A DNA stretch of 45,432 nt from a virus. Below, in pieces: positions 104 through 35,547 of the stretch; within the stretch, counting starts at the first letter, position 1, and the number at the start of each line of letters is the position of its first letter. A program made the position numbers and the translations under genes. The notes beneath the pieces are model-generated. The model made no database searches. It saw nothing but the letters and a program-made list of their open reading frames with translations, and was not told the origin of the DNA. Location of the stretch: positions 68,627-114,058 of IMG/VR virus record IMGVR_UViG_3300042261_000976. One strand, 5' to 3'.

Positions 104-3100
104 ATGAAAGTATTTAATATAAATGATAATTATTTCAAATATCAAAAATGTTTGTCTGGAATTACATATCAATATGTTAATGAATTAGATGACATATACG
201 CCAAAAATCTTATGGTTGGCACTAATTATTGTTTATATTGTATGTATAACGAGTTTGACATCATAAATAACTTTATGGTGAACTTATATCAAGTGGACGT
301 TTGTAGCACTTTAAATTTGGATTTAACTAAAAGATATTTTGATATAGACGGTGTTTCTCTAAGAACAGGACACAGAGTAATTCTTGTTGGTCAAACAGAT
401 AAAACACAGAACGATATTTATAATGTTGATTCTAGAGGATACCTTATATTATCAGACGAATTGGCTGACACTGGAAAAACTTGGAGATATAAAGCCTATG
501 TTAAATTAGGAGGAAATAAAAGTAAACAATTTCACTTAAAAAATTCAGGTAATAGATTTCCATTGAAGGGCGAAAAAAAGGAATTTTTAGAGGGTCATGG
601 TTATATTATAAAGAGCATATTTAATTACAATTTATTTTACGATGGACCTGTAAATCCAAAATTGATTTTTACTGATTATGAACTGGCTAGAATATCAGTT
701 AATAAAAACTACGAATTATACGATGGTTTCTATTTACCACTATTTATCACTGGTGATACTATTGATATTAAATATCATAACAGTGATTATATAATAAAAG
801 TAGATAATAATAATTCTAAATACATTTATACTGGGGTTACTTTAAGAAATACTGTTCTAAACACTGGAAGTACGGATATGTGGGGAAATTACGGTTATGA
901 AACATTCATAAAAACTAATTCCACTATATGTTCAAACGCTAATGTTTACGATTATGTAAAATTCGAGATATCTGGCAATACAAGCTTATATCTAAAAACT
1001 TTTATAAAAAGAATAGATGATCCTTATATAATCATATCAGATTATATATCTGATAATATCTTAAATGATTATTATTCGCCTAATATATCTGGTGCTAGTT
1101 ATTATAACACAACAATCGATGATTTAACTTATCCAACTTCAGGATTATGGCTAACACAAACATATGATACTTTCTTACCATATCAAGGAGGGGAATGGGT
1201 ACTACTTGAGTCTGGCGCAACTTGGTATTTGACAGGACAGGTTATTTCATATACTGGTAATACTGGTGATATTCTTATAAATATAACATATTCCAGTGTT
1301 CCTATCGGAACTAATTTTCATTGGGTTGTATCTTTAATAAGTGAACCTACTTATTATAGTTTTACTAATTTGATGTATTCTGATATTATGGATGTTGAAA
1401 ATACAATTTTAGAATCATATTATTCTAAATATTTCGATATTGATGGGGCTGGAAAATTATACCCAGCAGAAAATCTTGATAATTTATATTTTGATTATGA
1501 TGGATTAACATTCTATTTTAATACTACAGGACAATCTTTTACTACAACAAATGATTATATAAAATACAATTTATATAATCATCTCAATAAAATAAATCCA
1601 TATTTATTTGATACCGGATATACTTTTTTGATTGATAAACAATTAAATGCGATTACTTTTACTTATGAATATTTCGATGAAAGACCAAACCCTTATATTT
1701 ATCCTAATACTATAGGTGATAGCAAAGGAACGCTTATAAAGATAATACCTTATATTTCAAGTTATGTGAATTATTTTAAAAATCACACATATGTTGCTTT
1801 GAGTGATAATACAGGAGAATATAAATCTCTTATAGTAGATCTTGTTCCAAATGAATATTTTGTCGTAGAAACATATAAATCCAATACAGGATTAACTCTT
1901 AATTATATAAAAACAATATACAATTTAAAAGAAATATCAGATATTCTTTATGATGTTTATATAAACGAAGAAAACTCATATTACAGAGTGAGAGATGACG
2001 ATATGAGAAGAAATATATGTAATGGTTACGCTTCATTTATAAGCGAGGATTTAGGAATAATAGATAATACGACCGCTTTTTTAATGCAAGATCCACAACA
2101 TAAATTCGTTCTTAAAATATACGATCCCGAGAACTCCTATAATGGTGGTGTCGTAAGATCTCCTTATGTTATAACTAGACTTGATATAACTATTCCTACA
2201 GGTGGTACTTCAGCCATATTAAAGGGTGAAGTTATGAATGATGGGGGATCAAATATAACAGAGAGAGGAATTTGTTATTCTCCAGACTCTATTAACTTTA
2301 CATGTGTTTCAGCAACGACTTTAGGATTAGGACCTTATACATGCAATATTTATCCTCTAACTCCATTATATACCTATTACTATAAAGCTTATGCTAAAAA
2401 TATTCAAGGAATTGGGTATGGCGAATTATATACTTTTACTACTTCCGATCCAAATTATACAGCTCCAACAATAACTACAGACTATGTAGTTCCATATTCT
2501 CATAAATTAACACCATATGCTGATATTGTAGATATTGGATGGCTTCCTATACTAGAGAGAGGATTTATATATCAAACAGGAATAACTACACCCACTTTGA
2601 TAGATGATTTAGTTATTGTATATCTTCCAGAAAATGGTCAAACTGGTAGTTTTTATACTGATTTGACTGGGCTTACACATTCTACAATGTATTCTATAAA
2701 TAGTTACGCTATAAATATTTGCGGCACAACTTATGGGGATACTTATCATTTAGAAACATTATATCCTTCTCCTCCTGTTATAAATACAGTAGGATATACT
2801 AATGTTACATACAATAGCATGGATGTTATATGCAATTTAATAAGTAATGACGGAGAACTAACAGATCCAATTCACGGAGTAAACCAGATGGGGGTTGTTT
2901 ATTCGAATGATCCTGTTAATTTACCAACAACAGGAAATACTGTAAGACCTTATACTCCTATATCATTCGGACAATTTATAGTAAATTTAACTGGTTTAAC
3001 TTATAGTCAAAATTATTATATTAGAGCATACGCTATGAATACTTTATATTCCGGAAACACAACCGTTTATGGTACTATGATTTTTCCACCTCCTGCAACA

Positions 3101-5713: not shown

Positions 5714-7819
5714 ATGGCTTTTAAAGTTCAAATAGTAAATACTGAAGAAAACGCTAACAATATGATATTAGTTAGTGGATTGACTATTGAGATTGTAAAA
5801 TTAAAATATAATTGGTTATTAAATGCTACTGTTAAAAATTGTATAGTTGGCGAAGATGATTATGGACTTGTTTGGTATTCAGGTGAATGGGTATGTGGTG
5901 AATGGGTTGATGGTACATGGTATTCTGGAATATGGGATGACGGCACTTGGAAAAATGGCAAATGGTATTCTTATCTTATTGATAAGGCAAAAATTGTTGC
6001 TGGAATATTTGTCATTTTAGATAAATATTATACATATTCTCAATTCTTGAGTGGGTACTGGAAAGGCGGAGATTTTTACGATGGTATTTTTGGAGCAGAC
6101 AGAGATATTTCATCTGGAATAACATATTCTGATTTGATAAATAAAGATTTCACTTGTTCATATTGGGAAAATGGTAAATTTCATAATGGAATATTTAAAA
6201 ATTCTGTATGGGTAAATGGTATATTCTATAATGGCAATATGTCAGGATCTTATTGGATGAATGGCACATTTTACAATGGAACTTTCAATCATCATCAATG
6301 GTTTAATGGACTTTGGTATGGTGGAGATTTTCAAGAAGGAGATTGGTTCAATGGCACTTTTGATCAAATAGATGTGAATATAAAAAGTAGGTTTGGCACA
6401 GCCAATTTATATAATTCAAAAACTTCTTGGTACGGTGGCACATTTTATAATGGTGAATTTCATTCTGGTCTTAATTTAGATTCTAGTGGCAACACTATGC
6501 CAAGTATAAATAGTAGTTTAACTCATTGGTATAATGGTAATTTTAGAGGAGGTAAATGGTATGGTGGTCATTTTCACAATGGAAATTTCTATATAGGAAA
6601 TTGGTATGGTGGAGTATTTAATGACTCTTTCGGATTAATTCCTTCTTCTAAATGTATATGGCATGATGGAAATTGGTATAACGGACTATGGATGAACGGA
6701 ACTTTTTTAGATGGTCATTTTTATGATGGTATGTGGCTAGACGGAATATTCTCAGGAGGATATATTTCAACAAATATAATAGAAGGAGTGTTATTAACAC
6801 AGTCACTCGCATCAAATCCAAATTTACCTACAGTAGTAACATCTGGCGCTACTAATATAACTTCAAATAATGCAACCTTAAATGGTAGAGTTACAAATAA
6901 CGGCGGAGCAACAATATTAGATAGAGGTATTTGTTGGTCTATAAATTCTGACCCAGTAACAGGAAATACAATTAACAACTCATATTTAAATGATGGAGGA
7001 TCTATGGGTAATATTAGTATGTCAATAGGTGGTCTAACAAGTGGAACTTTATATTACTTTAGAGCTTATGCTAGAAATATAACTGGAATAACTTATGGGA
7101 ATCAAATGACATTCAATACGATTGTTGTTCCAAATTCACCTCCTTCTGTTCACACTTTAGGTGCTCTAAATATTTCTTCAGGAATAATAGACGGAACAGG
7201 AACTGCTGATGGTAAGGGAAATATCACTGATAGCACATCTAGTCCTGTTACTAGTTGTGGTATATACTACGACACTACTCCAGATCCTTATCCGTTAGGA
7301 AGTATAGCTACTGGAGTTGTTCCCGGTGGACCAAATGGTATTGGCGAATTTACAGCACAATTAACAAATCTATATCAATTAACTACATATAATATAAGAG
7401 CATTTGCTATAAATGCTGATGGTATAGGAATAGGAGAAATATATCCATTTACTACTCCGGTCGTGAGCCCAGTTACAGCTTGTGTTGTAACTACTTATGA
7501 TCCTATTCAATCTATAGCCGATACAAGTGCGGTAACTTATGCTGAAGTTTTAGATAATGGAAATGGAACAATATCTACAGTTGGAGCTTGTTGGTCAACA
7601 ACGATAAATCCAACAACATCAGATCCTCACACAATAGATCCTGGTGTAACAGGACCTTTCTATACGACAATGACAGGATTATCACCAAGCACTACATATC
7701 ACGTAAGAGCATACGCTATTAATAGCTTTGGAACATCATATGGTGAAGATAGAGTATTTACAACAACACAATTGCGTACTGTTCCTACAGTAATAATGAT
7801 AAAAAGTACACCTATATAA
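5714..7819 (+). CDS. Structural protein: N-terminal period-5 Gly/aromatic repeat domain plus C-terminal FN3-like repeats
   Basis: aa ~60-340 show a strict 5-residue periodicity ([NG]-G-x-[FW]-x, e.g. GEWVC/GEWVD/GTWYS/GIWDD/GTWKN and NGKFH/NGIFK/NGIFY/NGTFY/NGTFN/NGLWY). The C-terminal 300 aa contain three FN3-like units (RGICWS...LYYFRAYARN, TYNIRAFAINADG, TYHVRAYAINSFG) of the same type as in 104..5023. Confidence 0.45.
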   Translation: MAFKVQIVNTEENANNMILVSGLTIEIVKLKYNWLLNATVKNCIVGEDDYGLVWYSGEWVCGEWVDGTWYSGIWDDGTWKNGKWYSYLIDKAKIVAGIFVILDKYYTYSQFLSGYWKGGDFYDGIFGADRDISSGITYSDLINKDFTCSYWENGKFHNGIFKNSVWVNGIFYNGNMSGSYWMNGTFYNGTFNHHQWFNGLWYGGDFQEGDWFNGTFDQIDVNIKSRFGTANLYNSKTSWYGGTFYNGEFHSGLNLDSSGNTMPSINSSLTHWYNGNFRGGKWYGGHFHNGNFYIGNWYGGVFNDSFGLIPSSKCIWHDGNWYNGLWMNGTFLDGHFYDGMWLDGIFSGGYISTNIIEGVLLTQSLASNPNLPTVVTSGATNITSNNATLNGRVTNNGGATILDRGICWSINSDPVTGNTINNSYLNDGGSMGNISMSIGGLTSGTLYYFRAYARNITGITYGNQMTFNTIVVPNSPPSVHTLGALNISSGIIDGTGTADGKGNITDSTSSPVTSCGIYYDTTPDPYPLGSIATGVVPGGPNGIGEFTAQLTNLYQLTTYNIRAFAINADGIGIGEIYPFTTPVVSPVTACVVTTYDPIQSIADTSAVTYAEVLDNGNGTISTVGACWSTTINPTTSDPHTIDPGVTGPFYTTMTGLSPSTTYHVRAYAINSFGTSYGEDRVFTTTQLRTVPTVIMIKSTPI

Positions 7820-13706: not shown

Positions 13707-13781
13707 TTCTGGAAAAATTCCATCTTTTTTTGTTAATATATATTTTTGTATTGTACCAAAAAAATACAAAATGTAAAAGAT

Positions 13782-16623: not shown

Positions 16624-17382
16624 ATGACAGAAACATTCGCGACATATTGTTACGCATTAATGGGTCAATACAATAATAACATGAAAAAATTGGCCGATGA
16701 TTCTACTGAAATGATATTTAATTTAGTTTTAAAAAATCCAAATTTACAAATCAGAAGACCTAAAAATTATATCATAACTATAGGCAAATTTTATATCATT
16801 CAATATGATTATAATGGTAATAAAATATGGTGTCCTATTCTTGTTATAGATGATAGATATAATACAGAATTACAAAAAAGAATTTTATACGCTGTAAATT
16901 TCGATTACCTACCTTATAGATATAAAATACTTTTTATTGATAAACTATTTTCGATGTTTAAAACAGAAATACAAAAACATAAAGAAAATAATGATAAAGG
17001 AAATCTTGTTGATGAAGAAAATCCATTAAAAATTAATTTTGAATCAGTATATAAAACACTAAAAACTAATGGCGGATTTAATTATTGTATAACAGCTTTC
17101 GATTATACTAAGATAGTTGGTATAAAACTTGGAGATCCTAAAATATATGCTGTTTCTACTACTATAGTAAATAGATTAATTTTCATAGATACAAAAATAA
17201 TCAATAAGAGAGTTATGATGGATGCTCTAAAAGAAACAGACATAGAAATAGAAAAAGAAAAGTTATCTAAAATTTTAGAGGCTTATGAGAAAACGGCTTT
17301 TGATTATGAAAATGATGTTAAGGAATATTATGAACAACTTCGACAATTAGAAAACCATTATAAAATATATGAAAATCAATAA
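16624..17382 (+). CDS. Hypothetical protein (252 aa)
   Basis: Start 4 nt after the previous stop. No recognisable motif. By position (just upstream of the portal) it could be neck or head-associated, but this is unsupported by sequence. Confidence 0.3.
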   Translation: MTETFATYCYALMGQYNNNMKKLADDSTEMIFNLVLKNPNLQIRRPKNYIITIGKFYIIQYDYNGNKIWCPILVIDDRYNTELQKRILYAVNFDYLPYRYKILFIDKLFSMFKTEIQKHKENNDKGNLVDEENPLKINFESVYKTLKTNGGFNYCITAFDYTKIVGIKLGDPKIYAVSTTIVNRLIFIDTKIINKRVMMDALKETDIEIEKEKLSKILEAYEKTAFDYENDVKEYYEQLRQLENHYKIYENQ

Positions 17383-17419
17383 AAACATTTTTGACATAAA
17401 AGATTTTATATATAGATAC

Positions 17420-17686
17420 ATGAAAACTTTTGAACAATTTGAAATTGATCCTTATGGTGAAGAAAATTGGAACGAAAAACAACCAAGATATGAAATTGGA
17501 GATGGAATAAGAATTAATGGATTGTTTCTAAGAATTTCTAGTTATAGAATGAGAGATGATGGTTATTACTGGTATGATTTAGAAGATGAAAGAAACTATA
17601 TAAGTAGAAGAGAGGATGTATTGAATCATATTAAACATCCTGAATGGTCGATTCAGAAATGTCTTAACCCATCAATAGAGGATTAA
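17420..17686 (+). CDS. Small protein with CTS-like N-terminus immediately followed by the DPYGEENW motif; candidate internal head protein
   Basis: The track ORF starts at 17369 and overlaps the upstream gene. The internal ATG at 17420 gives MKTFEQFEIDPYGEENW..., closely matching the T4 capsid-targeting sequence MKTYQEFIAE, and removes the overlap. Confidence 0.4.
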   Translation: MKTFEQFEIDPYGEENWNEKQPRYEIGDGIRINGLFLRISSYRMRDDGYYWYDLEDERNYISRREDVLNHIKHPEWSIQKCLNPSIED

Positions 17687-17704: not shown

Positions 17705-19531
17705 ATGGCAAGTTACGATCGATATAGAGGAAATCAAAATCAAGCTGGTACAAATACCACTAATTTTGGTTTGTTCAATAGAATATTAAGAGGACTTTCT
17801 ACCATGTTTGGTGGATTGGAATATAATGATATGCGTATTAGAAATTCATATGCTATTGGAGTACATGAAGAAACAACAGATGTTCTTTATCAACCAAATA
17901 GTTCTAATATGTATGATTTATTTACTAAGAAAACTATAGCAAGATTCTTAGACAAAAAATCAATCGCTTATCTAGATAGAACATATTTAGATAAAAGAAA
18001 AATCCTAAGACAATATTCTATAAAAGATGAAATTAAAGATTTCATAACTCAAATTGCCGATGAATGTATAATTTATGATGATAACAATAGATTTTGTTTT
18101 GTTAAAGATCTTCCAGACACATACGAACAAACTATAAGACAAAAATATCAAGAAACTTTTACTAAACTTATAAATACTTTTAATTTTAATGAGGGTCAAA
18201 CAGCGTGGAATTATCTTAAAAATCTTTTAATTGATGGTTATATTTCTTATGAAGTCGTCTATGATGATAAACAAAAAAATATTATAGATCTTGCCCCGAT
18301 TGATCCAATTACTTTAATTGTTGCTACTGATCCAAACACAAATACGATGATTTGGATTCAACATCCAGATAATCCGGCATTAAGAAGAATTTTATTGGAT
18401 TCACAAATTATTTATATTTCATATTCAAACAATAATGAATATGGAGAAACTTCTTATGTTGAAAATCTTATTCGTCCTTTCAATCAATTGAAAATGATTG
18501 AACAGGCTAGATTACTTTACAATATTAATCAAGCCTCTATTTATAAGAAATTTACAATACCTGTTGGAGGATTGACTCGTCAACAAGCAGAACAACAAAT
18601 AACAGAACTCATAGCTGAGTATCATGATGATGTTCAGTGGGATGAAAGAATGGGTACTGTAGCAATTAATGGGAGTACAAATATTCCTTTTAGTAAAGAT
18701 ATTTGGTTTCCTGAAGGCAATGCAGGTACTCCAAACGTAGAAATTTTACAACCAACACAAGTTAATTTAAATGAAGATATAGTTCTTCAATGGTTCTTTA
18801 AGATATTAAAAAGAGCTAGTAAATTACCATTTGAAAGATTTAATGAAGAAAATGGTGGTGGAGCCTATGCTTACGATTCAAACGCTCAAGTTACTAGGGA
18901 TGAAGTTAAATTTAAAAATTTCATCAATAGAATAAGAACTATATTTAAGGAAATTCTTCTTAAACCTTTGAAGATTCAAATGATTTTAGAATTTCCAGAA
19001 TTAAAAGACGATGTAGATTTTAATAACTCTATTAAACTTGATTTTATTTCTGATACATTATTTGAAGAATGGCGTCACCTAAAGAACTTAAATGAAAGAG
19101 CATCTATAGCCCAAACATTGAGTTCATCACTCCAAGATGCTGCTGGTAAACCTTATCTTAGCATAGAATGGATAGTTCGTCATATTATGAAGTTCACTGA
19201 TGCTGATATTGAAGAAAATAATAAATATAAAGCAATAGAACGTAAGATGATGGGTGGTATGGAAGGAGCCGAAGGCGGCGGTGAATTCGGAGGCGGCGGA
19301 GGCGGCTTCGGTGGTGGCGGTATGTCATTCGGAGGTGGCGGTGGAGCCCAATTCGGTGGCGGTGGAGCCCAATTCGGTGGCGGTGGAGCCCAATTCGGTG
19401 GCGGTGAATTCGGTGGAGCACAAGGCGGTGGAGCCCAATTTGGTGGGGCACAAGGAGCACAAGGCGGTGGAGCCCAATTTGGTGGAGCACAAGGCGGTGG
19501 TGGCGGACAATCACAAGCACCAACATTCTAA
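17705..19531 (+). CDS. Portal protein (T4 gp20-like) with unusual C-terminal Gly-rich repeat tail
   Basis: By-eye alignment to T4 gp20: VTRDEVKFKNFINRIRTIFKEILLKPLKIQMIL vs [33 protein letters not shown], plus a block matching around YRITRAPDRR.../TGNMEDIRWF. Gene order portal, protease, MCP. The last ~90 aa are GG(E/A)QFGGGG repeats. Confidence 0.8.
   Translation: MASYDRYRGNQNQAGTNTTNFGLFNRILRGLSTMFGGLEYNDMRIRNSYAIGVHEETTDVLYQPNSSNMYDLFTKKTIARFLDKKSIAYLDRTYLDKRKILRQYSIKDEIKDFITQIADECIIYDDNNRFCFVKDLPDTYEQTIRQKYQETFTKLINTFNFNEGQTAWNYLKNLLIDGYISYEVVYDDKQKNIIDLAPIDPITLIVATDPNTNTMIWIQHPDNPALRRILLDSQIIYISYSNNNEYGETSYVENLIRPFNQLKMIEQARLLYNINQASIYKKFTIPVGGLTRQQAEQQITELIAEYHDDVQWDERMGTVAINGSTNIPFSKDIWFPEGNAGTPNVEILQPTQVNLNEDIVLQWFFKILKRASKLPFERFNEENGGGAYAYDSNAQVTRDEVKFKNFINRIRTIFKEILLKPLKIQMILEFPELKDDVDFNNSIKLDFISDTLFEEWRHLKNLNERASIAQTLSSSLQDAAGKPYLSIEWIVRHIMKFTDADIEENNKYKAIERKMMGGMEGAEGGGEFGGGGGGFGGGGMSFGGGGGAQFGGGGAQFGGGGAQFGGGEFGGAQGGGAQFGGAQGAQGGGAQFGGAQGGGGGQSQAPTF
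19254..19500 (+). repeat. Tandem imperfect ~24-bp repeats (GGTGGAGCCCAATTCGGTGGCGGT) encoding a Gly/Ala/Gln/Phe-rich portal tail
   Basis: Directly visible repeat of GGAGCCCAATTCGGTGGCGGT units. Locally GC-rich. Generates three spurious overlapping ORFs in other frames. Confidence 0.7.
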
Positions 19532-19542
19532 ATATAAAAAAA

Positions 19543-19568
19543 CCTCTGATTTATCAGAGGTTTTTTTA
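19543..19568 (+). terminator. Rho-independent terminator after the portal gene
   Basis: CCTCTGAT-TT-ATCAGAGG hairpin followed by TTTTTTT, 12 nt after the portal stop. Confidence 0.75.
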
Positions 19569-19638
19569 TTCAGTTCCAAAATGGAAAAAAAAGAGTTTTT
19601 TAGGTTAATATATATCAATAAAATAAAAGAGCCTAAAC

Positions 19639-22113
19639 ATGTATTATAAAAATGTTTTAATCATTGAAAATTCAACAAATGGCTTAAAAAAACTAAACGA
19701 ATCCATAGCTCCTTCCGGTAAAAAGCAATATATACTGGGCGGTATTTTCACGGAATTTAACGTTAAAAATAGGAATGATAGGATTTATCAAGCGGATAGA
19801 TTTTTGCCACATTTGGATGAATTGTTAGAAAGAAAAAAGACTCTGGGTGTTATATATGGTGAATTTGATCACCCGGATGTTTTTGACACTAGTTTGTCTA
19901 GGGTATCTCATACGGTTGAAAAGTGTTTCTTTGTCAGAGAAAAAAATAGAGTAGATGGTGAAATTAGATTACTAAATACTCATTGGGGTAGAGAAGCACA
20001 AGCATTAATCGATGATGGATGCCCAATTTTTGTTTCTTCACGTGCCGCCGGTGTAACTGAGTCGAATGGTGAAGTAACTATTAAAAAACTATTTACATAC
20101 GACGCAGTTGCTGACCCTGGGTTTAGTTCTGCGAAAATGGAACTTCGCACCTTAAATGAATCGCTAGGATTTAACGAGAGTGCCAACTTTAGGATATATG
20201 ATATATCCGACGAGTCAAAAATAAACGAGTTGTTCAATATGGATAAAAATGAATTTGTAACCAAAGAACAGATGGAAAAGTACTCAAATTATTTGACCGA
20301 GCAAATCACAAAAACAAAAAGTGAAATTAATGAAGCCATCCAAAAGGGAGACTTCGATCCAGCAAAGTTATCTGATTTATATGACAAGTATGATTCCTTC
20401 CAGGAAGGCTTCAAGAAAATAGCTTCCTATCTTGACTACTTAGCAGAAACAATGCAAGTCTTAGTCCAAGAAAACAAAAAAATCAAGAAAACAAACGAAA
20501 AATTAGAAGGCAAATTAGATAGAACAAAAGCTAAAACAGAAAAAATTATTGAACATAATGACTATTTAGCTGGAGAACTTGAAAAAGCCATCGGGTACAC
20601 AGAAAAAGCCATCGGGTACACAGAATATGTAGCTGAAGCAGTTGACAAATCTATTGATTATTCAAATTACATAGCTGAGACATTAGATAAATCTATTGAT
20701 TTCTCTGAATATATCGCAGAAAACGTTGATAATACAATTAAATATTCTGAATATATCGCTGAAAATCTTGATAAATCTATTGACTATTCTGAGTATGTTG
20801 CAGAAAATCTAGAAAAGAATATCGCATATGCTGAATATATTGCAGAGCATGTTGATAATAACATCAAATATGCTGAATATATCGCTGAACATGTCGACAA
20901 TAATATTAAATATGCTGAATATATAGCAGAACACGTCGATAACAGTATCAAATATACAGAATATGTTGGAGAACAATTAGATAACAGTATTAAGTATTCA
21001 GAATACATTGCTGAAAATCTAACTGATTCTATTGCCTATGGTAATTACTTAGCAGAAGCAATTGACAAGAATGTTGAGTACGGTAAGTATCTCGCAGAAA
21101 AATTAAATAGTGGTTCATTTGGAAGATTAAACGAACAAGTACAACCACCAGCACAAAAAATGGGTAACTTCAAGACCGATTCAGTAGCCAAATACTATGA
21201 TGAAAATGAGAACGATATGACTCAAGCACAACCAGTACAGGGAGCTCAAGCACAAGGTGCACAACCAAGAATGGCTCAACCAGTACAAGGTCAAGCTCAA
21301 CCAAGAGCCCAAGCCCAAGCTCAACAAGTACAGGGTATGGATTTAGAAGGTGAAGAAAGTGAGGATATGGATGTTCAAGGAGTAAATGCTGAAGAAATTC
21401 AAGACATTGATGATAAGGCAGAACTCACTCCAGGTCAAGTTGTCAAGATTGATGACGACAAAACAGGTGAAATTTTAGCAGTTAATGCTGATAATGGAAT
21501 AGCTGTTGTTAAATTATCTGACACAGGTGAAGTCCAAGAGATTCAAGAATCCAGATTATCTATCATAGGTGATAAGATTTATGAATCAGAAAACACATTA
21601 AAGAAACTAATATTAAAGCAAATAAATGAGTCCAAAAAACGTGAGGCATCGAAAGATAACGAACCTCATTTCTTACTTTTCTTAACTGAAAAGAAAAAGG
21701 CTGCTTATTACAACCTTTCACAACAGGATAAAGAAAAAGTAATCGTTGCAATGAACGAAAGCAAAGGTTATACAACAGAAAGTGAAGTTCTCGCTATCAT
21801 GGCTAAAGCATTAACTACAGCCACAAGAAGTTTTAATGAGACGTTGATCGACAATATCCCAGGCGATCTAAGACCAATATGGGAAAGTTTACGTCCCGAG
21901 GTTCAAGGTAGTATTATAAATAGTGCGCAATTCTATACTAATTTGACAGAGGATAAAATGGAAAGTTTCTGGAATTCTAGAGACCTTCATAAATATGCAA
22001 AGAAAAACATGGGTAAAGTGACCTTGTTAACAGAAAGTAATAACAAATTTGATAACACTAAACTCTCTGATGATCTTGTAGATGCATATTTAAAAAGAAT
22101 TAATCAAAGATAA
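19639..22113 (+). CDS. Prohead protease (T4 gp21-like, N-terminal ~200 aa) fused to a long scaffold/core-like C-terminal extension
   Basis: GGIFTEFNVKNRNDRIYQ vs T4 gp21 EGIFLQAEVVNRNKRLYP; GEFDHP vs GELNHP (catalytic His); FVSSRAAGV vs GVSSRGLG (catalytic Ser). The C-terminal 600 aa hold coiled-coil tandem repeats (EYIAENVDNSIKYSEY, ~10 copies), a Q/A-rich tract and an acidic region, i.e. a gp22/scaffold-like character. Confidence 0.75.
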   Translation: MYYKNVLIIENSTNGLKKLNESIAPSGKKQYILGGIFTEFNVKNRNDRIYQADRFLPHLDELLERKKTLGVIYGEFDHPDVFDTSLSRVSHTVEKCFFVREKNRVDGEIRLLNTHWGREAQALIDDGCPIFVSSRAAGVTESNGEVTIKKLFTYDAVADPGFSSAKMELRTLNESLGFNESANFRIYDISDESKINELFNMDKNEFVTKEQMEKYSNYLTEQITKTKSEINEAIQKGDFDPAKLSDLYDKYDSFQEGFKKIASYLDYLAETMQVLVQENKKIKKTNEKLEGKLDRTKAKTEKIIEHNDYLAGELEKAIGYTEKAIGYTEYVAEAVDKSIDYSNYIAETLDKSIDFSEYIAENVDNTIKYSEYIAENLDKSIDYSEYVAENLEKNIAYAEYIAEHVDNNIKYAEYIAEHVDNNIKYAEYIAEHVDNSIKYTEYVGEQLDNSIKYSEYIAENLTDSIAYGNYLAEAIDKNVEYGKYLAEKLNSGSFGRLNEQVQPPAQKMGNFKTDSVAKYYDENENDMTQAQPVQGAQAQGAQPRMAQPVQGQAQPRAQAQAQQVQGMDLEGEESEDMDVQGVNAEEIQDIDDKAELTPGQVVKIDDDKTGEILAVNADNGIAVVKLSDTGEVQEIQESRLSIIGDKIYESENTLKKLILKQINESKKREASKDNEPHFLLFLTEKKKAAYYNLSQQDKEKVIVAMNESKGYTTESEVLAIMAKALTTATRSFNETLIDNIPGDLRPIWESLRPEVQGSIINSAQFYTNLTEDKMESFWNSRDLHKYAKKNMGKVTLLTESNNKFDNTKLSDDLVDAYLKRINQR
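20560..21070 (+). repeat. In-frame tandem repeats inside the protease-scaffold gene (2 x 21 bp, then ~10 x 48 bp)
   Basis: GAAAAAGCCATCGGGTACACA x2, followed by repeated units of the form GAATATATCGCAGAAAACGTTGATAATACAATTAAATATTCT encoding (S/A)EYIAE(N/H)(V/L)D(N/K)(S/N)I(K/D)Y. Confidence 0.75.
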
Positions 22114-22190
22114 ATTATCTATTCGACAAGCATTTTGGAAAAAAATGACTTTTTAAACCGAATATATAATTAAAAAAAAATTAGAAAAAA

Positions 22191-23975
22191 ATGAATTTTA
22201 TAGTTGACAGTGCGAAAGCAATAAAGAAATGGCAACCTATTCTCGACGCTCTTAGGGTAACTGATGATGACAAGAGAGCTTGGATGTCAGAGTATGCTGA
22301 AATGCATCAAATGAATGAAAATGTTGGCTATGCCACATTAAATCAAAAAGGTATGGGTCAAGTATTTGCTCCAGTAGTAGGTACAGTTCCAGGTGCAACA
22401 TGGCAAGATGGTCATGGCGCAATTGGTAGCGGTGACGTTGCTCAAAACCTCCTTCCAGTAGCTATGAAGATCGCTGCTCAAACAATCGGTTTGGATTTAG
22501 TAGCTGTTAAACCAACAGCATCACCAAGAATCGAGTTGTTATTCGTTGACTTCAAATATGACAACGCTTATGCAAACGATCCTAATCGTGAAGATATCGA
22601 TCCAAGACAAAGACCACTTGTTTTCAAATTAGCCACAAGCACAAGTGCTGGTGATTTAGCTTTAAAACAAGCTCTTCAATTACAACTCAGTCTTTTGAGT
22701 ATTCAAGAAAGAGTTGGTGGATTATCAAAAAGAACATGGGTTCACTTAGGAGCTGGTTGTACAGTTGCTCAATTAACTAATTTACCAGACAATTTACCAG
22801 CCGCTGGTTACTACAATTTTATGGAATTCTTAGGATTTTCAAGAATTGATGGACACCCAATGTATAGAATTTACAGACAAGCCGGTTTCTCAGTTGGTTC
22901 AATGACACCACAAGACGGTTCTGCATGGGATTCTACATTAAACACTTTCCCACAAACAGGAGCTATCACAGACGTTCTTATCGCAAGTGGTATTACCACA
23001 GTATCAGGAACATCAACATCTCAAGTCACAGGAAACACAGCAGCTGCTGGTGCAACTGTTGAATTAGTATCCTTACTCGAAGATCATATTCCAGGATTCT
23101 CCGCAGGTTGGACATCCAATATGGAAAATGGTTGGGAAGGCCCAATGACAAGATACCAAGATGAAAAAACCTATCCAGGTGTTATCGGTCCTGACGTATT
23201 TACAAAATCCGTCCAAGTTGGTGACATCGAAATCTCCTCAACATTGAAGAGAACCCAAATTGAAGACATCAAGGCTTCAACTGGTATGGATATTGTTCAG
23301 AAATTGGAAGGTGTTCTTATTAATGAATTAACTCAGGTTATTTCTAAGGAAATCGTAGGTAAAATCAGAAAATTAGCTCTTGCTAATAGAGATTCCTACA
23401 CAGCACCAAAAGCAACTGACGGTGTTACATGTAAATTCGACTTAAACGTTGACTCTTACATCGCATCACTTTCAAGTGGTACTTATGGTGGAGCAATGGG
23501 TGAAACAACTCACTCAATCCAAAGAAAGCTTATTGCTAAGATCAATAACGCTTCTAACTTCATCGCAACTGATGGTAGAATTGGACCAGCTCAATATTTG
23601 GTTACAAACGGTAACTTAGCTTCCGTTATCCAAGATATCGCTGGTTATACGATCAATCCAGTTAACGCTGGTAAATTAAACACCAACGGTCAACTTTATC
23701 CAATGGGTAATGTTGGACAGATTGCAATCTATGTAGATCCTTACATGAGATGGGATGATAACTTCATCTATATGGGTAGAAAGAATAGCGTTGACCAACC
23801 AGGTCTTCTCTTTATTCCTTACTTAATGGCTCAATCAATTAGCTTAATCAGTGAAGCTACCTGGGCACCCAGGATGTTAATTAGATCAAGATATGCAGTA
23901 GCTGATATCGGATTCTTCCCGGAAAAGCAATTCATGGCAATTAAAGTTACTGATAGTAACGGTGTTCTTATCTAA
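22191..23975 (+). CDS. Major capsid protein (T4 gp23-like, HK97-fold lineage)
   Basis: AKAIKKWQPILDAL vs T4 gp23 AELLNKWKPLLEG; AMKIAAQTIGLDLVAVKPTASPRIELLFV vs VRRAIPNLIAFDICGVQPMNSPTGQVFAL. Likely maturation cleavage at QMNE|NVGY, analogous to T4 FLTE|AEIGG. Followed by the strongest terminator in the window. Confidence 0.85.
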   Translation: MNFIVDSAKAIKKWQPILDALRVTDDDKRAWMSEYAEMHQMNENVGYATLNQKGMGQVFAPVVGTVPGATWQDGHGAIGSGDVAQNLLPVAMKIAAQTIGLDLVAVKPTASPRIELLFVDFKYDNAYANDPNREDIDPRQRPLVFKLATSTSAGDLALKQALQLQLSLLSIQERVGGLSKRTWVHLGAGCTVAQLTNLPDNLPAAGYYNFMEFLGFSRIDGHPMYRIYRQAGFSVGSMTPQDGSAWDSTLNTFPQTGAITDVLIASGITTVSGTSTSQVTGNTAAAGATVELVSLLEDHIPGFSAGWTSNMENGWEGPMTRYQDEKTYPGVIGPDVFTKSVQVGDIEISSTLKRTQIEDIKASTGMDIVQKLEGVLINELTQVISKEIVGKIRKLALANRDSYTAPKATDGVTCKFDLNVDSYIASLSSGTYGGAMGETTHSIQRKLIAKINNASNFIATDGRIGPAQYLVTNGNLASVIQDIAGYTINPVNAGKLNTNGQLYPMGNVGQIAIYVDPYMRWDDNFIYMGRKNSVDQPGLLFIPYLMAQSISLISEATWAPRMLIRSRYAVADIGFFPEKQFMAIKVTDSNGVLI

Positions 23976-24082: not shown

Positions 24083-24412
24083 ATGAATAACTTGAAGAGA
24101 TATAGAGAAATAAATGAGGATGTTGAAGAAAATAAATTCGTAAAATTTAATGGTAGGGATTCGTTTTCTAGAACTATCGAAGTAAAATCAGAAGATGCCA
24201 AAAACCAAAAGTTCCAAGACGAACTCAGTTACGCTATAGGTCTTATTAAAGAACATATAGAAGATGGTTTAGGTTATCAAATGAAAAAGAAATACAAAAT
24301 TAAAAATATGACTTTCAACGTAGACGATAAAGGAAAAGAATATTGTAAGATAGAATTCTTAGATACGAATACAAACGATATTGATCCTTACGGTGAAGAA
24401 GATTGGAGATAA
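24083..24412 (+). CDS. Small protein ending in the DPYGEEDW motif
   Basis: C-terminus is ...NDIDPYGEEDWR*. N-terminus MNNLKRYREINE parallels MNNLKTYEEF of ORF 38640..38975. A TATAAATC late-promoter-like motif lies ~40 nt upstream (24041..24048). Confidence 0.35.
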   Translation: MNNLKRYREINEDVEENKFVKFNGRDSFSRTIEVKSEDAKNQKFQDELSYAIGLIKEHIEDGLGYQMKKKYKIKNMTFNVDDKGKEYCKIEFLDTNTNDIDPYGEEDWR

Positions 24413-29825: not shown

Positions 29826-31406
29826 TTATTTTCTTCTATGTTTTATTATATAATCAGTTATTATTTCTGGTATATTTATTTCTGATATAACAGAAAATGT
29901 TGGGAAGTGTGGTGAAGAATTGGCTTCCATTACATAATATTTTCCAGTAACTTTATCCTGAATAATATCAAAACCAACTATATCACATATTAAATGTTTT
30001 GATATATCCTCACACATAGCAATTATATCTGGTGGTAATGATCCTTTTACAGCCTTTCCACCTCTTGCAACGTTAGCTCTAAATTCCTTTGAACCTTTTA
30101 TTCTTTCTTTCTTTATTACTAGTTCAACTTTATTCTTTATAGAAATAACTCTATAATCTCCGTCATTAGGAATAAATTTTTGAATCAACATCAACTTATT
30201 ATTATATCCAAAATGATCTACTAATTGTGACATTTTATCAATCTTGAAAACTCCTTCTCCTCTATTTAGATTAACATCTTTAACGATGACTGGAAATCCA
30301 AATTCTTTAACATGTTGAATAACTCTTTTCGTTAATTTTGTTGCCATTATTGAAGGTATATAAGGATAACCCAAAGATTCTAATAAATGAAATTCATAAG
30401 CCTTATTATCTAAATCTTTATATGTGCCATATTTGAGATATGGAATATTGTGTTTATCTAAATAATGGATTAACATTTTAACAACGGTAGAGAAATTAGA
30501 CATAAAACCAAAGAAAACAAAATCATATTCTTTAAGTCTCATATTATCAATATAATAATCATTATTGACTCTATAAATATCATCGTAATTACAAAAATCT
30601 ACTAATGAATCTTTTAATTTATCCTTGAATAAGAGTGGGAATAACTCTGACATTTGACGTTTTCCCTTAAAGTAATTGTGTTTATCTTTTTCACCGTGAG
30701 TATCTATGGCTAAATCAAATTGTAAGAATAAAAATTTATGTTTGAATGCGACGTCTCTTTCTACAGCCTTGAATCTAAACATTTTATATGGGATTCTATA
30801 ACCTATTTCTATATGAGGTTCTCCACTTTTATAATATCTTCCTTTACTATCGCATACAGTTCTTACTTTATGAAATGGTTTTGATTTCAGAAATTCAATT
30901 TGACTATCGTTCAGATCATTAAAATCTTCACAAATAACATAATCCCCAACTTGAATAGGCAAACTATCAATATCAAATGCTACATCATCTTCATCAAGTT
31001 CTTCGCCTTCTTTACCCATTAATGTGTCCATAACATCTTTTGGTAAGAACTTAAAATATGGATGTTCTTCAAGATCTTTTTTACTGATCTTTTTCTTTTC
31101 TTTCTTTTCTTTCTTTTTTAAGAAATCAAGATATGGATTTCTACTAGTTTCTTCTCCTCCTTCTTCTTTATCCTTTTCATCGCTGATAGGATTTTCATCC
31201 GGAAACAATGGTAGTTCTATTTGATCGTCTTTTTCCACAACACGTTTGCCTGGTTTCCCATATCCAAACATATTACTAAATGGTTTATCCCAATCAAAAT
31301 TAAATCCAAATGGTTTCTTTGAAGGGTCTGGTGGAGGTGCTTTCTTTTTAACATCTTTTTCTTTTTTCGCCTCGAAATAAGATGAATATTTTTGAATTTC
31401 TGTCAT
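29826..31406 (-). CDS. ATP-grasp ligase of the RimK family, with N-terminal K/E-rich low-complexity region
   Basis: C-terminal 300 aa: FPVIVKDVNLNRGEGVFKI, LIQKFIPNDGDYRVISI, EFRANVARGGKA, DIVGFDIIQDKVTGKYYVMEANSSP, the order and spacing of RimK/glutathione-synthetase-type ATP-grasp motifs. N-terminal 130 aa are KKEKKEKKK / EE-rich and disordered-looking. Confidence 0.65.
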   Translation of the reverse strand: MTEIQKYSSYFEAKKEKDVKKKAPPPDPSKKPFGFNFDWDKPFSNMFGYGKPGKRVVEKDDQIELPLFPDENPISDEKDKEEGGEETSRNPYLDFLKKKEKKEKKKISKKDLEEHPYFKFLPKDVMDTLMGKEGEELDEDDVAFDIDSLPIQVGDYVICEDFNDLNDSQIEFLKSKPFHKVRTVCDSKGRYYKSGEPHIEIGYRIPYKMFRFKAVERDVAFKHKFLFLQFDLAIDTHGEKDKHNYFKGKRQMSELFPLLFKDKLKDSLVDFCNYDDIYRVNNDYYIDNMRLKEYDFVFFGFMSNFSTVVKMLIHYLDKHNIPYLKYGTYKDLDNKAYEFHLLESLGYPYIPSIMATKLTKRVIQHVKEFGFPVIVKDVNLNRGEGVFKIDKMSQLVDHFGYNNKLMLIQKFIPNDGDYRVISIKNKVELVIKKERIKGSKEFRANVARGGKAVKGSLPPDIIAMCEDISKHLICDIVGFDIIQDKVTGKYYVMEANSSPHFPTFSVISEINIPEIITDYIIKHRRK

Positions 31407-32179: not shown

Positions 32180-33058
32180 TTAAACCAATCCCTTTATTTT
32201 TAATGCTCTTAATAGTCTTGTTAATCCTATTCCTCCACCATATCTTTTGAACATCTGTAGAGATAAATAATCTTCCAATTCTTCTTCAACTCTTTCTTGT
32301 GAAAATTCATTAAAAAGAAGTTTAGCATACATGCCATCACTGATTGTATGGAAGCTACTACGCATTTGTTCAACATCAGATTCTCTCTCAGCACTACCAA
32401 ATGTTTCTATACCACAAATTATAAAATCACATTTATTAAATAATTTTTCACCAGTCATTTTATTGTTTCCTTCCTGTTTCATATTCCAAAAAGGACTTGT
32501 TCTTTCCGGGAAATTAGTTATAGCAACTACATCGCCGTATTCTTCCCACATTTTAGTTTCATGTTCTGCTTCAAGAATTTCAACACCATATCTCTTGCAC
32601 AATTCGTCATATTCTATAAAAGGTATATCATCTACCGATTTCACAAACCCCATATGAACTGACAATTCACTTAAAGTTTTTAACAAATCTTTATATTCTC
32701 CTTTATGTTCAAATTCAAACATAGGGAATATTTTATCATGTCTTCCTTCGATTGGATTTGGTTCATCTCTATAACTTGTTGTTAAACAATATATGCCTTC
32801 AGATTCTTCTGGGTATGTCATTAATAACATTTCAAGATTCATCTGATTAGTTTGACTCAACGGCCAATTTTTACCATCAAATGTAAATGATCTGAGAGTT
32901 TTTGGATCTTCACAAGCAGCCATTATTGATCTAATCGGTTGTGGATAAACCTCTTTGTAATTTTTTTGCATAAAAAAATCCCTTAGTTTAACAATCATAG
33001 AATTAAACTCTTCGGGACTAATAACTTGTTGATTAAAAATTTTCTTTTTCATAAGCAT
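32180..33058 (-). CDS. Class II aminoacyl-tRNA synthetase catalytic-core paralog lacking an anticodon-binding domain (EpmA/GenX- or AsnA-like amino-acid ligase)
   Basis: Motif 1-like FFMQKNYKEVYPQPI; motif 2 TTSYRDEPNPIEGRHDKIFPMFEFE (fRnE...rH..EF.m.E.E); motif 3 GGGIGLTRLLRAL (GxGxGxxRL). 292 aa, only the catalytic core. Confidence 0.6.
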   Translation of the reverse strand: MLMKKKIFNQQVISPEEFNSMIVKLRDFFMQKNYKEVYPQPIRSIMAACEDPKTLRSFTFDGKNWPLSQTNQMNLEMLLMTYPEESEGIYCLTTSYRDEPNPIEGRHDKIFPMFEFEHKGEYKDLLKTLSELSVHMGFVKSVDDIPFIEYDELCKRYGVEILEAEHETKMWEEYGDVVAITNFPERTSPFWNMKQEGNNKMTGEKLFNKCDFIICGIETFGSAERESDVEQMRSSFHTISDGMYAKLLFNEFSQERVEEELEDYLSLQMFKRYGGGIGLTRLLRALKIKGLV

Positions 33059-34032: not shown

Positions 34033-35547
34033 CTAATCCGAATATTCTAGTTCCATTATTAAATCTTCTTCTGCTGCCTTCAATTCTCTCTTATGTTCTT
34101 CCAATTTATCATGATCTTTCATCATGAAATCTTTATATTTCTTTCTATCTCCATATACATCAGTCATTACTTGATTAACTATACCAGTTTCATTCTTGAA
34201 CACAGTATCGTTTAACAATTTAATATCTGTAGGTTCTAGTTCAACTCTATGTCCATTAAATACTGCAAATTCTTTATTAGGTGATAAAACTCCTTTATAA
34301 GAATCTGCTGATATATTGAACATTCTCATACAAGTAGGGTACAAACTTGCGAAGTCATAACAAGCTGTCCACATCGCCATTCCCTTGATTGTATCTTTTA
34401 CCCAACCACCTTTAACTGCTTTTTCTAAAGATTCTATTACTGTATCTGGTAAACTTTTTTCTAATTTACAAAGAATAACATTTTTTTCTTCTTTAAGTTT
34501 TCTTCTTAAGATGCCTTCAGTAACAGGTAAAGTAGAATAAGCATCTAATATCTTTATTCTAGATAATGTAGCGATGCCATAAAGAATATCAACCCATTTA
34601 GTAGTATCATGTATTTTTTGAACTAGAATAGAGTCAACAGCATTATAAAAAATGAATTTCTTATAATCTGTAGATGCTAATGTTTTAAGTGTTCCTTCGT
34701 AATTGATTTTCTTTACACCAAGAATACCATCAGAAACAAAGTCTAAACTGCTTGCCTCTTTTACTTTAATGATACTATTCCATTTTTCATATAATTCCTG
34801 ATAGTCAACTATAATTCTATGTCCTGGTAATTCGCAGAAAGATTCTCTTTTTTTACCACTTTTATTATCTCTTTTAAATGGAGGTCTAAGAACTCTCGTT
34901 GGTGATGCTGCGGTAGGATCAACTCCTATTTTTCTAGCTCTATTAACAAGAAATACCCAGTCGTATTCTGTAAAGTTCCAACCTGTTATGATTGGCATTT
35001 TTGGTACAAATTTCTCAAAGAAATTTAGTAACATTTCATATTCACTCTTATATCTTACGAATTTGAAATCATAGTCAGCGTTGAATTTAACAAAATAATT
35101 ATTAATGTCTTCTCTAATGGATTTTTCTTGCTCAGCACTCAAAGCGTCAAGCCCCATTACCATTACTTTATTCTTATTGACTATAGATATTGATTGTATT
35201 GCGCTTTCAGCTAATTGAGGTTGCGGCTTTTTATCCAGAATTTCGTTTTCAATATCAACAAAGAAAATTTCTGGCTCTACATATTTCATTACAATTTCTT
35301 GTTCTTCTTTCGGAAGACTATCAATAAAATCGTATACAGAATATCTATCTGGAAATCTTGTATAGACTTTCTTTACTGCTTTACCATCCCATGTAACATA
35401 TTGACCGTCTTTATCTCTATCATCGTCAGAGCAAACAACGTATTTGGTTGGATTTGGCCATGTATAGTACTTATGTTTTATCCATCCACCTTCACCGATG
35501 TAAGACAACATGAGTTTTTGATTCTTATATTCGTAATCTACAACCAA
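34033..35547 (-). CDS. Family-B DNA polymerase, N-terminal fragment only (T4 gp43 '43A'-like: 3'-5' exonuclease domain through polymerase motif A)
   Basis: Exo I IFFVDIENE (T4 CDIEVTG); Exo II MPIITGWNFTEYDWVFLVNRA (T4 PAIFTGWNIEGFDVPYIMNRV); Exo III FIFYNAVDSILVQKI (T4 YISYNIIDVESVQAI); motif A YDFASLYPTCMRMFNIS (T4 FDLTSLYPSIIRQVNIS). Ends ~70 aa after motif A. Motifs B and C are absent. The annotated start is a TTG at 35547; the first ATG is at 35511. Confidence 0.75.
   Translation of the reverse strand: MVVDYEYKNQKLMLSYIGEGGWIKHKYYTWPNPTKYVVCSDDDRDKDGQYVTWDGKAVKKVYTRFPDRYSVYDFIDSLPKEEQEIVMKYVEPEIFFVDIENEILDKKPQPQLAESAIQSISIVNKNKVMVMGLDALSAEQEKSIREDINNYFVKFNADYDFKFVRYKSEYEMLLNFFEKFVPKMPIITGWNFTEYDWVFLVNRARKIGVDPTAASPTRVLRPPFKRDNKSGKKRESFCELPGHRIIVDYQELYEKWNSIIKVKEASSLDFVSDGILGVKKINYEGTLKTLASTDYKKFIFYNAVDSILVQKIHDTTKWVDILYGIATLSRIKILDAYSTLPVTEGILRRKLKEEKNVILCKLEKSLPDTVIESLEKAVKGGWVKDTIKGMAMWTACYDFASLYPTCMRMFNISADSYKGVLSPNKEFAVFNGHRVELEPTDIKLLNDTVFKNETGIVNQVMTDVYGDRKKYKDFMMKDHDKLEEHKRELKAAEEDLIMELEYSD

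Follow-up and report, generated by a model that had tools for sequence, protein, structure and literature searches.

A single open reading frame (ORF) in the IMG/VR virus record IMGVR_UViG_3300042261_000976 probably encodes a self-processing prohead polyprotein that would be the functional equivalent of T4 gp21 and gp22 in one chain. The stretch of DNA analysed here, referred to as the window, covers 45,432 nucleotides (positions 68,627 to 114,058 of that record), and the complete protease-scaffold ORF occupies positions 19639-22113 on its plus strand. It starts with ATG and encodes 824 amino acids (aa; 93.9 kDa, pI 4.8), in agreement with the initial annotation of the window, which had described a single 824-aa ORF joining a prohead protease to a repeat-built, scaffold-like domain. 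The N-terminal domain is clearly a prohead serine protease of the T4 gp21 family, and its fusion to a long C-terminal part is real and family-wide, being universal where it can be assessed. For this C-terminal part, we infer a role as scaffold, oligomerisation, and a C-terminus that binds the capsid shell.

The protease core (aa 22-174, 17.3 kDa; 19702-20160, plus strand) ends at the invariant motif L-N-E174|S and is recognized by both profile and structure comparisons. The protein matches phrog_207 'head maturation protease' with an E-value of 1.6e-29, and the only Pfam family over its threshold is Peptidase_S80 (PF20034; 25.7 bits, cut-off 23.4), with Peptidase_S77 (PF03420) remaining below its own (23.1 bits, cut-off 27). 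A search of the PDB with the single 824-aa sequence gave no match and a profile of seven homologs was required, which retrieved 5JBL (T4 gp21) as its sole match with an E-value of 7e-7. Aligned to native T4 gp21 with hhalign, the domain reaches a probability of 96% (E 3.5e-9). The AlphaFold2 (AF2) model, in which the predicted local distance difference test score (pLDDT) is mostly 60-87 over this domain, matches chains A, B and C of 5JBL in Foldseek, with an E-value of 3e-7 and a target-normalised template modelling score of 0.57-0.68 over about 156 columns.

The catalytic triad of gp21 and of SPN3US gp245 consists of His, Ser and Asp (PMC5694885). The corresponding residues, all encoded on the plus strand and unchanged across a 65-homolog alignment, are His78 in GEFDHP (codon at 19870-19872, aligned to T4 H85), Ser133 in VSSRAAG (20035-20037, aligned to T4 S140, a position occupied by Ala in the crystallized 5JBL chain) and Asp155 in FTYDAV (20101-20103, aligned to the Asp of T4 GVDAV). 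The gp21-like domain with catalytic His and Ser that had been read from the window is thus borne out by profile, structure, and alignment to T4.

Two cleavage-type motifs delimit this core. The prohead proteases of T4, phiKZ and SPN3US cleave after Glu and process themselves, the motif being (L/I)-x-E for T4 and A-x-E for SPN3US (PMC5694885, PMC9958956). The N-terminal segment (aa 1-21; 19639-19701, plus strand) is a predicted propeptide that ends at L-N-E21|S, a motif kept in 93% of 120 homologs, which are the best 120 of the 4,145 proteins retrieved by a word-indexed search at E <= 1e-5. T4 gp21, for its part, strips nine residues from its own N-terminus (PMC9958956). At the other end of the core, E174 is conserved in 100% of these homologs, and P2 is N in all 120 of them and P1' is S in 119. 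This site lies in a disordered segment just after the protease fold, and in the alignment to T4 gp21 it falls on an I-T-E|S motif close to the end of that protein. Cuts at E21 and E174 would leave a core of 153 residues with a calculated mass of 17.3 kDa. The linker that begins here (aa ~160-208) is disordered in the AF2 model, is conserved in the alignment (NFRIYDISDESKINELFNMDKNEF at aa 175-208; 20161-20262, plus strand) and holds Met201.

The fusion of this protease to a second part extends through the whole family. The best 120 homologs all measure 681-851 aa; query coverage is 98% or more in 105, and some are encoded on contigs 640-736 kb long. With aa 201-824 as the only query, an exhaustive HMMER search, counted as representatives at 50% identity, gave 545 representatives (223 at E <= 1e-10), and the full-size hits are fused, since the match begins about 190-260 residues into the target. 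By tblastn, the closest public relatives are LR756501 and LR756503 (735 kb), which match from end to end at 83.7% identity, followed by LR745206, LR756504 and LR756502 (635-642 kb) and LR756500 (462 kb). In the Prevotella Lak megaphages the tblastn match is confined to the first ~247 residues, and in a tblastn search of a phage collection only the huge-phage clade was matched. A search of BFVD matched a 389-aa protein of Virus NIOZ-UU157.

The initial annotation had named as a refuting condition that a sequencing or assembly artefact had joined two genes. The general risk carried by repeat-containing metagenomic contigs is the one argument for such an event, which is extremely improbable here: the same ORF is found in all of the 120 listed homologs from many samples, it is continuous also in complete genomes of 462-735 kb, and over 3,658 nt the window has 100% identity with an independent Logan contig (SRR27007106_1004113). 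A stand-alone C-terminal or scaffold half was also sought, and the profile search gave 19 hits and the exhaustive search a few that were short or short at the N-terminus. None of the apparent cases checked was a true stand-alone half, each having a trivial cause, namely gaps of N in scaffolds L009 and L012, a TAG-recoded Lak-type gene (L010), contig edges (P0148, P0163), or a contig with a recoded stop (P0270). The TAG in L010 (JGI 3300041757 contig) is in frame within the conserved KID-Q-IFTYD protease motif, and in L019 (a 183-kb contig of JGI 3300051198) the portal and capsid genes are fragmented as well; stop-codon reassignment is suggested for both, because gene calling with the standard code breaks the fusion homologs.

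The non-protease part of the chain is scaffold-like in its physical character, with about 280 helical residues, acidic fragments of pI 4.2-4.8, a disordered linker and a helical C-terminus. Like a gp22-type scaffold, it is coded between the protease and the capsid gene and is helical, acidic and rich in protease sites. The order of genes is portal, 824-aa ORF and capsid gene, with no further gene in between. The portal gene is of the T4 gp20 type (17705-19531, plus strand; 608 aa including a Gly-rich C-terminal tail; Pfam Portal_T4 E 3.3e-71, phrog_213 E 1.8e-66), and the major capsid gene is of the gp23 type (22191-23975, plus strand; 594 aa; Pfam Gp23 E 6.8e-25). Farther 5' of the portal gene come a head-completion gene resembling gp4 and a gene with a weak likeness to gp2, and the region as a whole constitutes a T4-type head module. 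The T4 order is 20-67-68-21-22-23, where genes 21 (protease) and 22 (scaffold) are separated by 30 bp; one ORF here occupies the slot of both. The gp21 (217 aa) and gp22 (351 aa) of cyanophage S-SKS1 are likewise separate proteins.

Most of the helical content lies in a predicted rod, a near-continuous alpha-helix over aa 209-491 (20263-21111, plus strand) that would measure about 42 nm if straight. The AF2 helices comprise residues 209-236, 241-352 and 356-491, with pLDDT values of 45-84. The rod contains an array of 12 tandem units of 14 residues (aa 327-494; 20617-21120, plus strand), defined by a Tandem Repeats Finder (TRF) period of 42 bp and by the protein register, and led by a degenerate unit. 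The array had been described as about ten copies of a 16-residue repeat encoded by nearly perfect 48-bp DNA repeats, figures that have to be corrected in unit length, copy number and degree of identity. From 1,375 units in the 120 homologs, the consensus is Y-S-E-Y-I-A-E-N-L-D-K-N-I-x, with hydrophobic residues at positions 1, 4, 5, 9 and 13 and Ala at position 6 in 96% of units. Position 7 is Glu in every collected unit, under a collecting motif that admitted only E or N there. Rod matches to the Pfam families DUF1664, YabA, DivIVA, PSCyt2 and PspA are all sub-threshold and were treated as coiled-coil noise, to which JGI names given to homologs, such as 'regulator of replication initiation timing', were also put down.

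The history of the array is written in its synonymous sites. TRF matches across it amount to 73-77%, and the DNA identity between units has a pairwise mean of 63% and a maximum of 83%; even where two units have the same amino-acid sequence, 7 of the 42 bases are different. At residues common to two units the codon agrees in 55% of cases, compared with 52% expected from codon usage alone, so that synonymous sites are saturated, and this chance level of matching indicates that the array is old and has been kept by selection at the protein level. All 120 homologs have a period of exactly 14, the run has 11-13 units in 106/120, and a YLDYLAE motif 5' of the array is heptad-phased with it in 119/120. 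Recent change is limited to a tandem duplication of 21 bp (2.1 copies, TRF match 100%; 20581-20625, plus strand), which inserts one heptad, EKAIGYT. No other DNA repeat in the gene is perfect. The duplication corresponds to a gap in all 119 other listed homologs, and is reproduced in the Logan contig mentioned above. Since it adds exactly seven residues, the heptad phase is kept.

The earlier proposal of a recently expanding and contracting array, giving length-variable scaffolds, draws on this duplication at the 5' edge of the array and on three successive units (aa 397-438) that are identical or nearly so in protein. Against it stand the low DNA identity between units, the synonymous codons at chance level, the constant period and unit number among relatives, and the phase-keeping nature of the only recent event. 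It is therefore highly improbable. A role of the rod as a capsid-size ruler was considered as well and rejected, given that 11-12 units are found alike in genomes of 462, 635-642 and 735 kb; because the unit number is constant and Lak phages of 540-550 kb have no repeat rod, there is no simple scaling with size.

Cleavage-type motifs are more frequent in the 824-aa protein than expected. For hydrophobic-N-E, 7 occurrences compare with 1.36 expected (P = 0.0002), and for hydrophobic-N-E-[S/N], 4 with 0.17. The sites at E21, E174, E499, E664 and E707 are conserved in 93-100% of the 120 homologs (E499 in 100%) and the site at E799 in 86%, and each repeat unit carries one (I/L/V)-A-E motif, kept in 79-100% of homologs depending on the unit. 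The suggestion that I/L-x-E sites and Q/A repeats both offer self-cleavage positions agrees with the data in its first half, given one motif per repeat and the conserved hydrophobic-N-E|S at the domain boundaries. The Q/A tract, on the other hand, lacks Glu, after which T4-type proteases cleave (PMC5694885), shows no conservation and is disordered in the AF2 prediction. A further site is predicted in the major capsid protein, where a hydrophobic-x-E43|N44 motif (E43 codon at 22317-22319, plus strand) has both E43 and N44 invariant in six homologs. This is consistent with a propeptide of about 43 residues, T4 gp23 shedding 65 (PMC9958956). All of these cleavages are deduced from motif conservation.

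Beyond the rod, the Q/A-rich tract, the acidic segment and the C-terminal domain that had been noticed in the sequence are all present. Prediction of the C-terminal structure, which had been suggested as a check, yields a small barrel, an all-helical domain without solved counterpart, and a terminal helix (mean pLDDT 74 in a separate C-terminal model; mean pLDDT 60 in the full AF2 model from the 65-sequence alignment). A disordered linker (aa ~492-595; 21121-21423 for aa 495-595, plus strand) contains L-N-E499, the Q/A tract (~527-566) and the acidic tract (~567-595); it is poorly conserved with many alignment gaps, and pLDDT falls to 24-32 over aa 521-590. It is followed by a predicted five-stranded beta-barrel resembling KOW, Tudor and SH3 folds (aa ~596-646, modelled at ~601-642; 21424-21576, plus strand), which is present in homologs of ~780-850 aa and has no counterpart in those of ~700 aa, in Lak or in PTm1. 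The conserved all-helical domain (aa 647-799, helices 647-790; 21577-22035, plus strand; pLDDT 68-87) includes I-N-E664, M-N-E707 and L-T-E799. It has no Pfam family and no PDB counterpart, the top PDB matches all being through the barrel. A C-terminal MP..IW..L...FW motif is common to PTm1 (hhalign E 1.5e-5) and Lak.

The last 25 residues (22036-22110, plus strand) follow L-T-E799|S, a motif kept in 86% of homologs. In the AF2 model, aa 791-808 are disordered and aa 811-823 form an amphipathic terminal helix. This segment is a candidate capsid-protein-binding tail, by likeness to the 25-residue tail of UL26/UL26.5 from herpes simplex virus. Thomsen et al. are said to have shown in 1995 that the last ~25 residues of the herpesvirus scaffold are needed for capsid assembly (cited in PMC8539031).

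The modular layout of the C-terminal part also bears on another function, in which the barrel and the helical C-terminal domain would remain in the mature head as internal head proteins, possibly associated with DNA or ejected, and only the rod would be disposable. Conserved hydrophobic-N-E sites bracket the folded modules 500-664 and 665/708-799, the barrel is like KOW/Tudor folds, many of which bind nucleic acids, and the T4 head retains core-protein fragments, gp21 also processing internal proteins (PMC9958956). However, the barrel is dispensable, as it is missing in the ~700-aa homologs, Lak and PTm1, and acidic fragments (pI 4.2-5.8) do not favour DNA binding, so that delivery of internal head proteins is improbable.

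The putative transcription signals place the fusion gene together with the capsid gene. A terminator-like hairpin followed by a T-run, aaaacctctgatttatcagaggttttttt (19539-19567, plus strand), which contains GC, was read in the sequence between the portal gene and a bipartite late-promoter-like motif, GGAAAAA-N-TTAATATATA (19583-19614, plus strand), located ~25 nt 5' of the ATG. A motif scan found the same bipartite motif before the capsid gene (22137-22168, plus strand). GGAAAAA-N(12-30)-ATATATA occurs three times in the window (13711-13742, 19583-19614 and 22137-22168) against 0.13 expected, and it is kept 5' of the protease-scaffold and capsid genes in five relatives (L001-L005); AATATATA is ~22-fold enriched 5' of genes compared with coding sequence. 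The bipartite motif is likely a late promoter of this phage clade, and its presence before both the protease-scaffold and the capsid gene suggests that the two are probably expressed strongly and late.

Whether one or two products arise from the ORF bears on the ratio of protease to scaffold. Herpesviruses and phage lambda make an abundant scaffold from a start that lies inside the longer gene, in the same frame, and scaffold transcripts exceed those of the fusion ~10-fold in Herpesvirales (PMC11565193). Nested expression of this kind would make the fusion a minor product, with an abundant scaffold-only protein starting at Met201 (codon 20239-20241) and a low protease:scaffold ratio restored. 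Met201 is more than 90% conserved, in LFNM(D/N)KNEF, and lies 27 residues past the E174 site; an A-rich AAAAATAAA is found 14-22 nt 5' of it, like the leaders of real starts in this Shine-Dalgarno-free genome; and T4 gene 21 has an annotated internal initiation. Shine-Dalgarno sequences are absent from the window and hence provide no criterion for a start at Met201. The bipartite promoter-like motif, however, is not found inside the 824-aa ORF, and a scan for sigma-70 promoters and terminators inside it gave promoters at or below shuffle expectation. The ATATAT 5' of Met201 is accounted for by Ile-Tyr codons and is lost in L003. The synonymous-site identity 5' of Met201 (0.62) is not above that of other segments (gene mean 0.54, maximum 0.73), and conservation of the surrounding peptide at the protein level alone explains that of Met201. 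The internal start that had been raised as a possible source of a separate scaffold product is thus accompanied by neither an internal promoter motif nor synonymous-site constraint, which makes it unlikely and favours a single product, as in P2 gpO.

In the proposed mechanism for the self-processing polyprotein, the promoter-like motif that the gene has in common with the capsid gene would lead to strong, late expression of both. The helical rod (aa ~209-491), composed mostly of twelve 14-residue units with a broad hydrophobic face, would oligomerise to form an internal core, and the C-terminal helical domain together with the last 25 residues would touch the capsid shell, the portal, or both. 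Every scaffold chain would in this way carry one inactive protease into the prohead. Once the shell is complete, the protease would cleave after Glu in hydrophobic-x-Glu motifs, releasing itself at E21 and E174 as a 17-kDa core, cutting the rod once per unit into peptides of ~14 residues, small enough to exit the shell, parting the C-terminal modules at E499, E664, E707 and E799, and taking the ~43-residue propeptide off the capsid protein.

Several observations weigh against this polyprotein. With hhalign, the profile of the non-protease part of the family gave a probability of 0.5% against T4 gp22 and 0.1% against S-SKS1 gp22, and because no gp22 homology is detectable, the scaffold assignment rests on position and physical character. 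The 1:1 ratio of protease to scaffold contrasts with T4, where there are ~55 gp21 to ~580 gp22 (PMC9958956). Several nearby ORFs without assigned function could include other core proteins, and a literature search returned no experimental data on any family member. Moreover, hydrophobic-x-Glu readily arises in helical, Glu-rich sequence, the E664 and E707 sites sit within or at the end of predicted helices, the rod was modelled as a monomer with low confidence (45-80), and its hydrophobic pattern departs from the canonical a/d heptad.

The missing gp22 homology and the unassigned ORFs nearby would equally suit a protease with a long targeting extension, whose C-terminal 650 residues deliver or position the enzyme in a core built from other proteins. 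A precedent is found in the SPN3US/phiKZ proteases, whose autocleaved C-terminal region presumably directs them into the prohead (PMC5694885). Nevertheless, 650 residues with a length-conserved rod of ~280 residues far exceed the need of a targeting peptide, there is no other gene between portal and capsid, the promoter-like motif is shared with the capsid gene, and the presence of one cleavage-type motif in every repeat points to bulk material destined for degradation. A targeting extension is for these reasons quite unlikely, and a polyprotein that provides both protease and scaffold remains the preferred interpretation.

Among the closest known systems is that of T4, whose gp21 is pentameric (PMC9958956). 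The N-terminal domain has in common with gp21 (MEROPS S77; 5JBL) the fold, the His/Ser/Asp triad, the position in the gene order and the type of cleavage motif, hydrophobic-x-Glu, and both the N-terminal self-cleavage site and the I/L-x-E|S at the end of the protease align (PMC9958956, PMC5694885). The rest of the chain, being helical and acidic, has the character to be expected of a degraded core protein such as gp22. Where T4 uses two proteins of 212 and 269 aa, and gp67 and gp68 besides, however, there is one 824-aa chain here, and T4 has no counterpart of the 14-residue rod, the KOW/Tudor-like barrel, or the helical C-terminal domain of ~150 residues. Other giant-phage proteases, phiKZ gp175 and SPN3US gp245 (MEROPS S80), also cleave after Glu and remove their own C-terminal region, but they are of ordinary size with a short C-terminal extension, and a scaffold counterpart is unconfirmed in those phages (PMC5694885).

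The fusion of a protease to a scaffold is already known from P2 gpO and herpesvirus UL26, and is present in public records that include cultured phages. In gpO, as here, an N-terminal protease and a C-terminal scaffolding part form one chain, a likeness that is of architecture only (PMC7552001). The P2 protein processes itself and the capsid protein, and P2 has no separate scaffold gene (PMC7552001). If no nested product is made from the 824-aa ORF, gpO would by analogy be its closest functional counterpart. It differs, on the other hand, in being 284 aa long, in serving a T=7 capsid, and in having no tandem repeats, barrel or large C-terminal domain. None of the Pfam and PHROG matches of the 824-aa protein is to a gpO-type family, and no gpO sequence was compared.

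Herpesvirus UL26 is also organized, from its N-terminus, as a protease, a cleavable linker and a scaffold, and its protease belongs with T4 gp21 to one structural superfamily (PMC5694885). The herpesvirus triad is Ser-His-His (PMC4498786), and the 824-aa protein has His/Ser/Asp instead. Herpesviruses produce an abundant nested scaffold isoform (PMC11565193), compared with which this ORF offers a conserved Met201 with neither internal motif nor synonymous constraint. UL26 and the 824-aa protein are alike in the single reading frame and in the placing of cleavage-type motifs, which here follow the protease (E174) and precede the last 25 residues (E799). Herpesvirus cleavage sites are not known to lie after Glu, and UL26 is not known to contain a repeat rod.

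Nearer relatives are found in the cultured Tenacibaculum phages PTm1 and pT24 and in the Lak megaphages. PTm1 ORF-300 (564 aa) is annotated as 'prohead core scaffolding protein and protease' and pT24 BPT24_140 (527 aa) as 'prohead core scaffold', these GenBank names, like that of the Lak protein, being generic T4-derived labels. Together with the Lak homolog (584 aa, Lak-A2), they carry homologous proteases (34-38% identity) in the same slot, followed by hydrophobic-x-E|S, a helical or low-complexity middle and the C-terminal MP..IW..L..FW motif. The PTm1 repeat differs, consisting of ~5 units of 16 residues (WIxxxFTKELSEGIEK), and Lak has an acidic low-complexity region in place of the repeat rod; the barrel is missing from all three. 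A literature search found no published description of the fusion in huge phages or in PTm1. Specific to the fusion described here are the strictly periodic 14-residue rod of conserved length with one cleavage-type motif per unit, the optional barrel, the unmatched helical domain and the motif 25 residues from the end.

These features provide a strong scaffold candidate, covalently tied to the maturation protease, for a clade that includes a 735-kb phage and the Lak megaphages, and they bear on how capsids for genomes of 500-735 kb are built. They also come with a predicted cleavage motif and concrete cut sites, both in the 824-aa protein and in the capsid protein at E43, and as the cultured phages PTm1 and pT24 carry the same layout, the predictions can be tested at the bench. 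As a phage example of a herpesvirus-type protease-scaffold fusion on the same protease fold, the family bears as well on the shared ancestry of assembly modules. A more far-reaching proposal, which is speculative and on balance doubtful, combines these aspects. The rod would be a purpose-built, self-destructing spacer with a fixed length of ~25-42 nm that helps to set the core geometry of the largest phage capsids, each two-heptad module having evolved exactly one site for the protease of the same chain. In that case the likeness to UL26 would be inherited from a fused protease-scaffold state ancestral in Duplodnaviria, and would not be convergent; it comprises the assemblin-fold protease, its release site, the scaffold, and a maturation site that leaves 25 residues to the C-terminus.

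The remaining features of the window are of a more general kind. Its G+C content is 31%, no tRNA genes were found in it, and its gene starts have A-rich leaders without Shine-Dalgarno sequences, a pattern expected of Bacteroidota and their phages. The portal protein ends in a tail of ~90 Gly-rich residues with GGAQFGG units, encoded by the 3' end of the gene (19260-19531), within which a 21-bp unit is repeated 3.5 times at 100% identity (19334-19406); the truly perfect tandem repeats of the region are those of the portal tail and not the scaffold ones. A Gly-rich portal tail is also present in the related scaffold L009 (GGDFGGGG / GGGAQAGG).

A peptide motif, DPYGEE(D/N/S)W, occurs six times in five otherwise unrelated ORFs of the window, at positions 17447, 24383, 28208, 28607, 37593 and 38819, the last four on the minus strand. 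Its carriers include two small ORFs flanking the head module (17369-17686 and 24083-24412), and it was not found at the head-module loci of relatives. Three ORFs on the minus strand have recognizable domains: a 504-aa ORF (34033-35547) matches only the exonuclease and the first part of a family-B DNA polymerase, for which reason the polymerase may be split, a 292-aa ORF (32180-33058) resembles the core of class II aminoacyl-tRNA synthetases, and a 526-aa ORF (29826-31406) has a RimK-type ATP-grasp domain. On the plus strand, 5' of the head module, are found an ORF of 1,639 aa (104-5023) with no Pfam match and another of 701 aa (5714-7819) with fibronectin type III repeats and a weak match to a minor tail protein.

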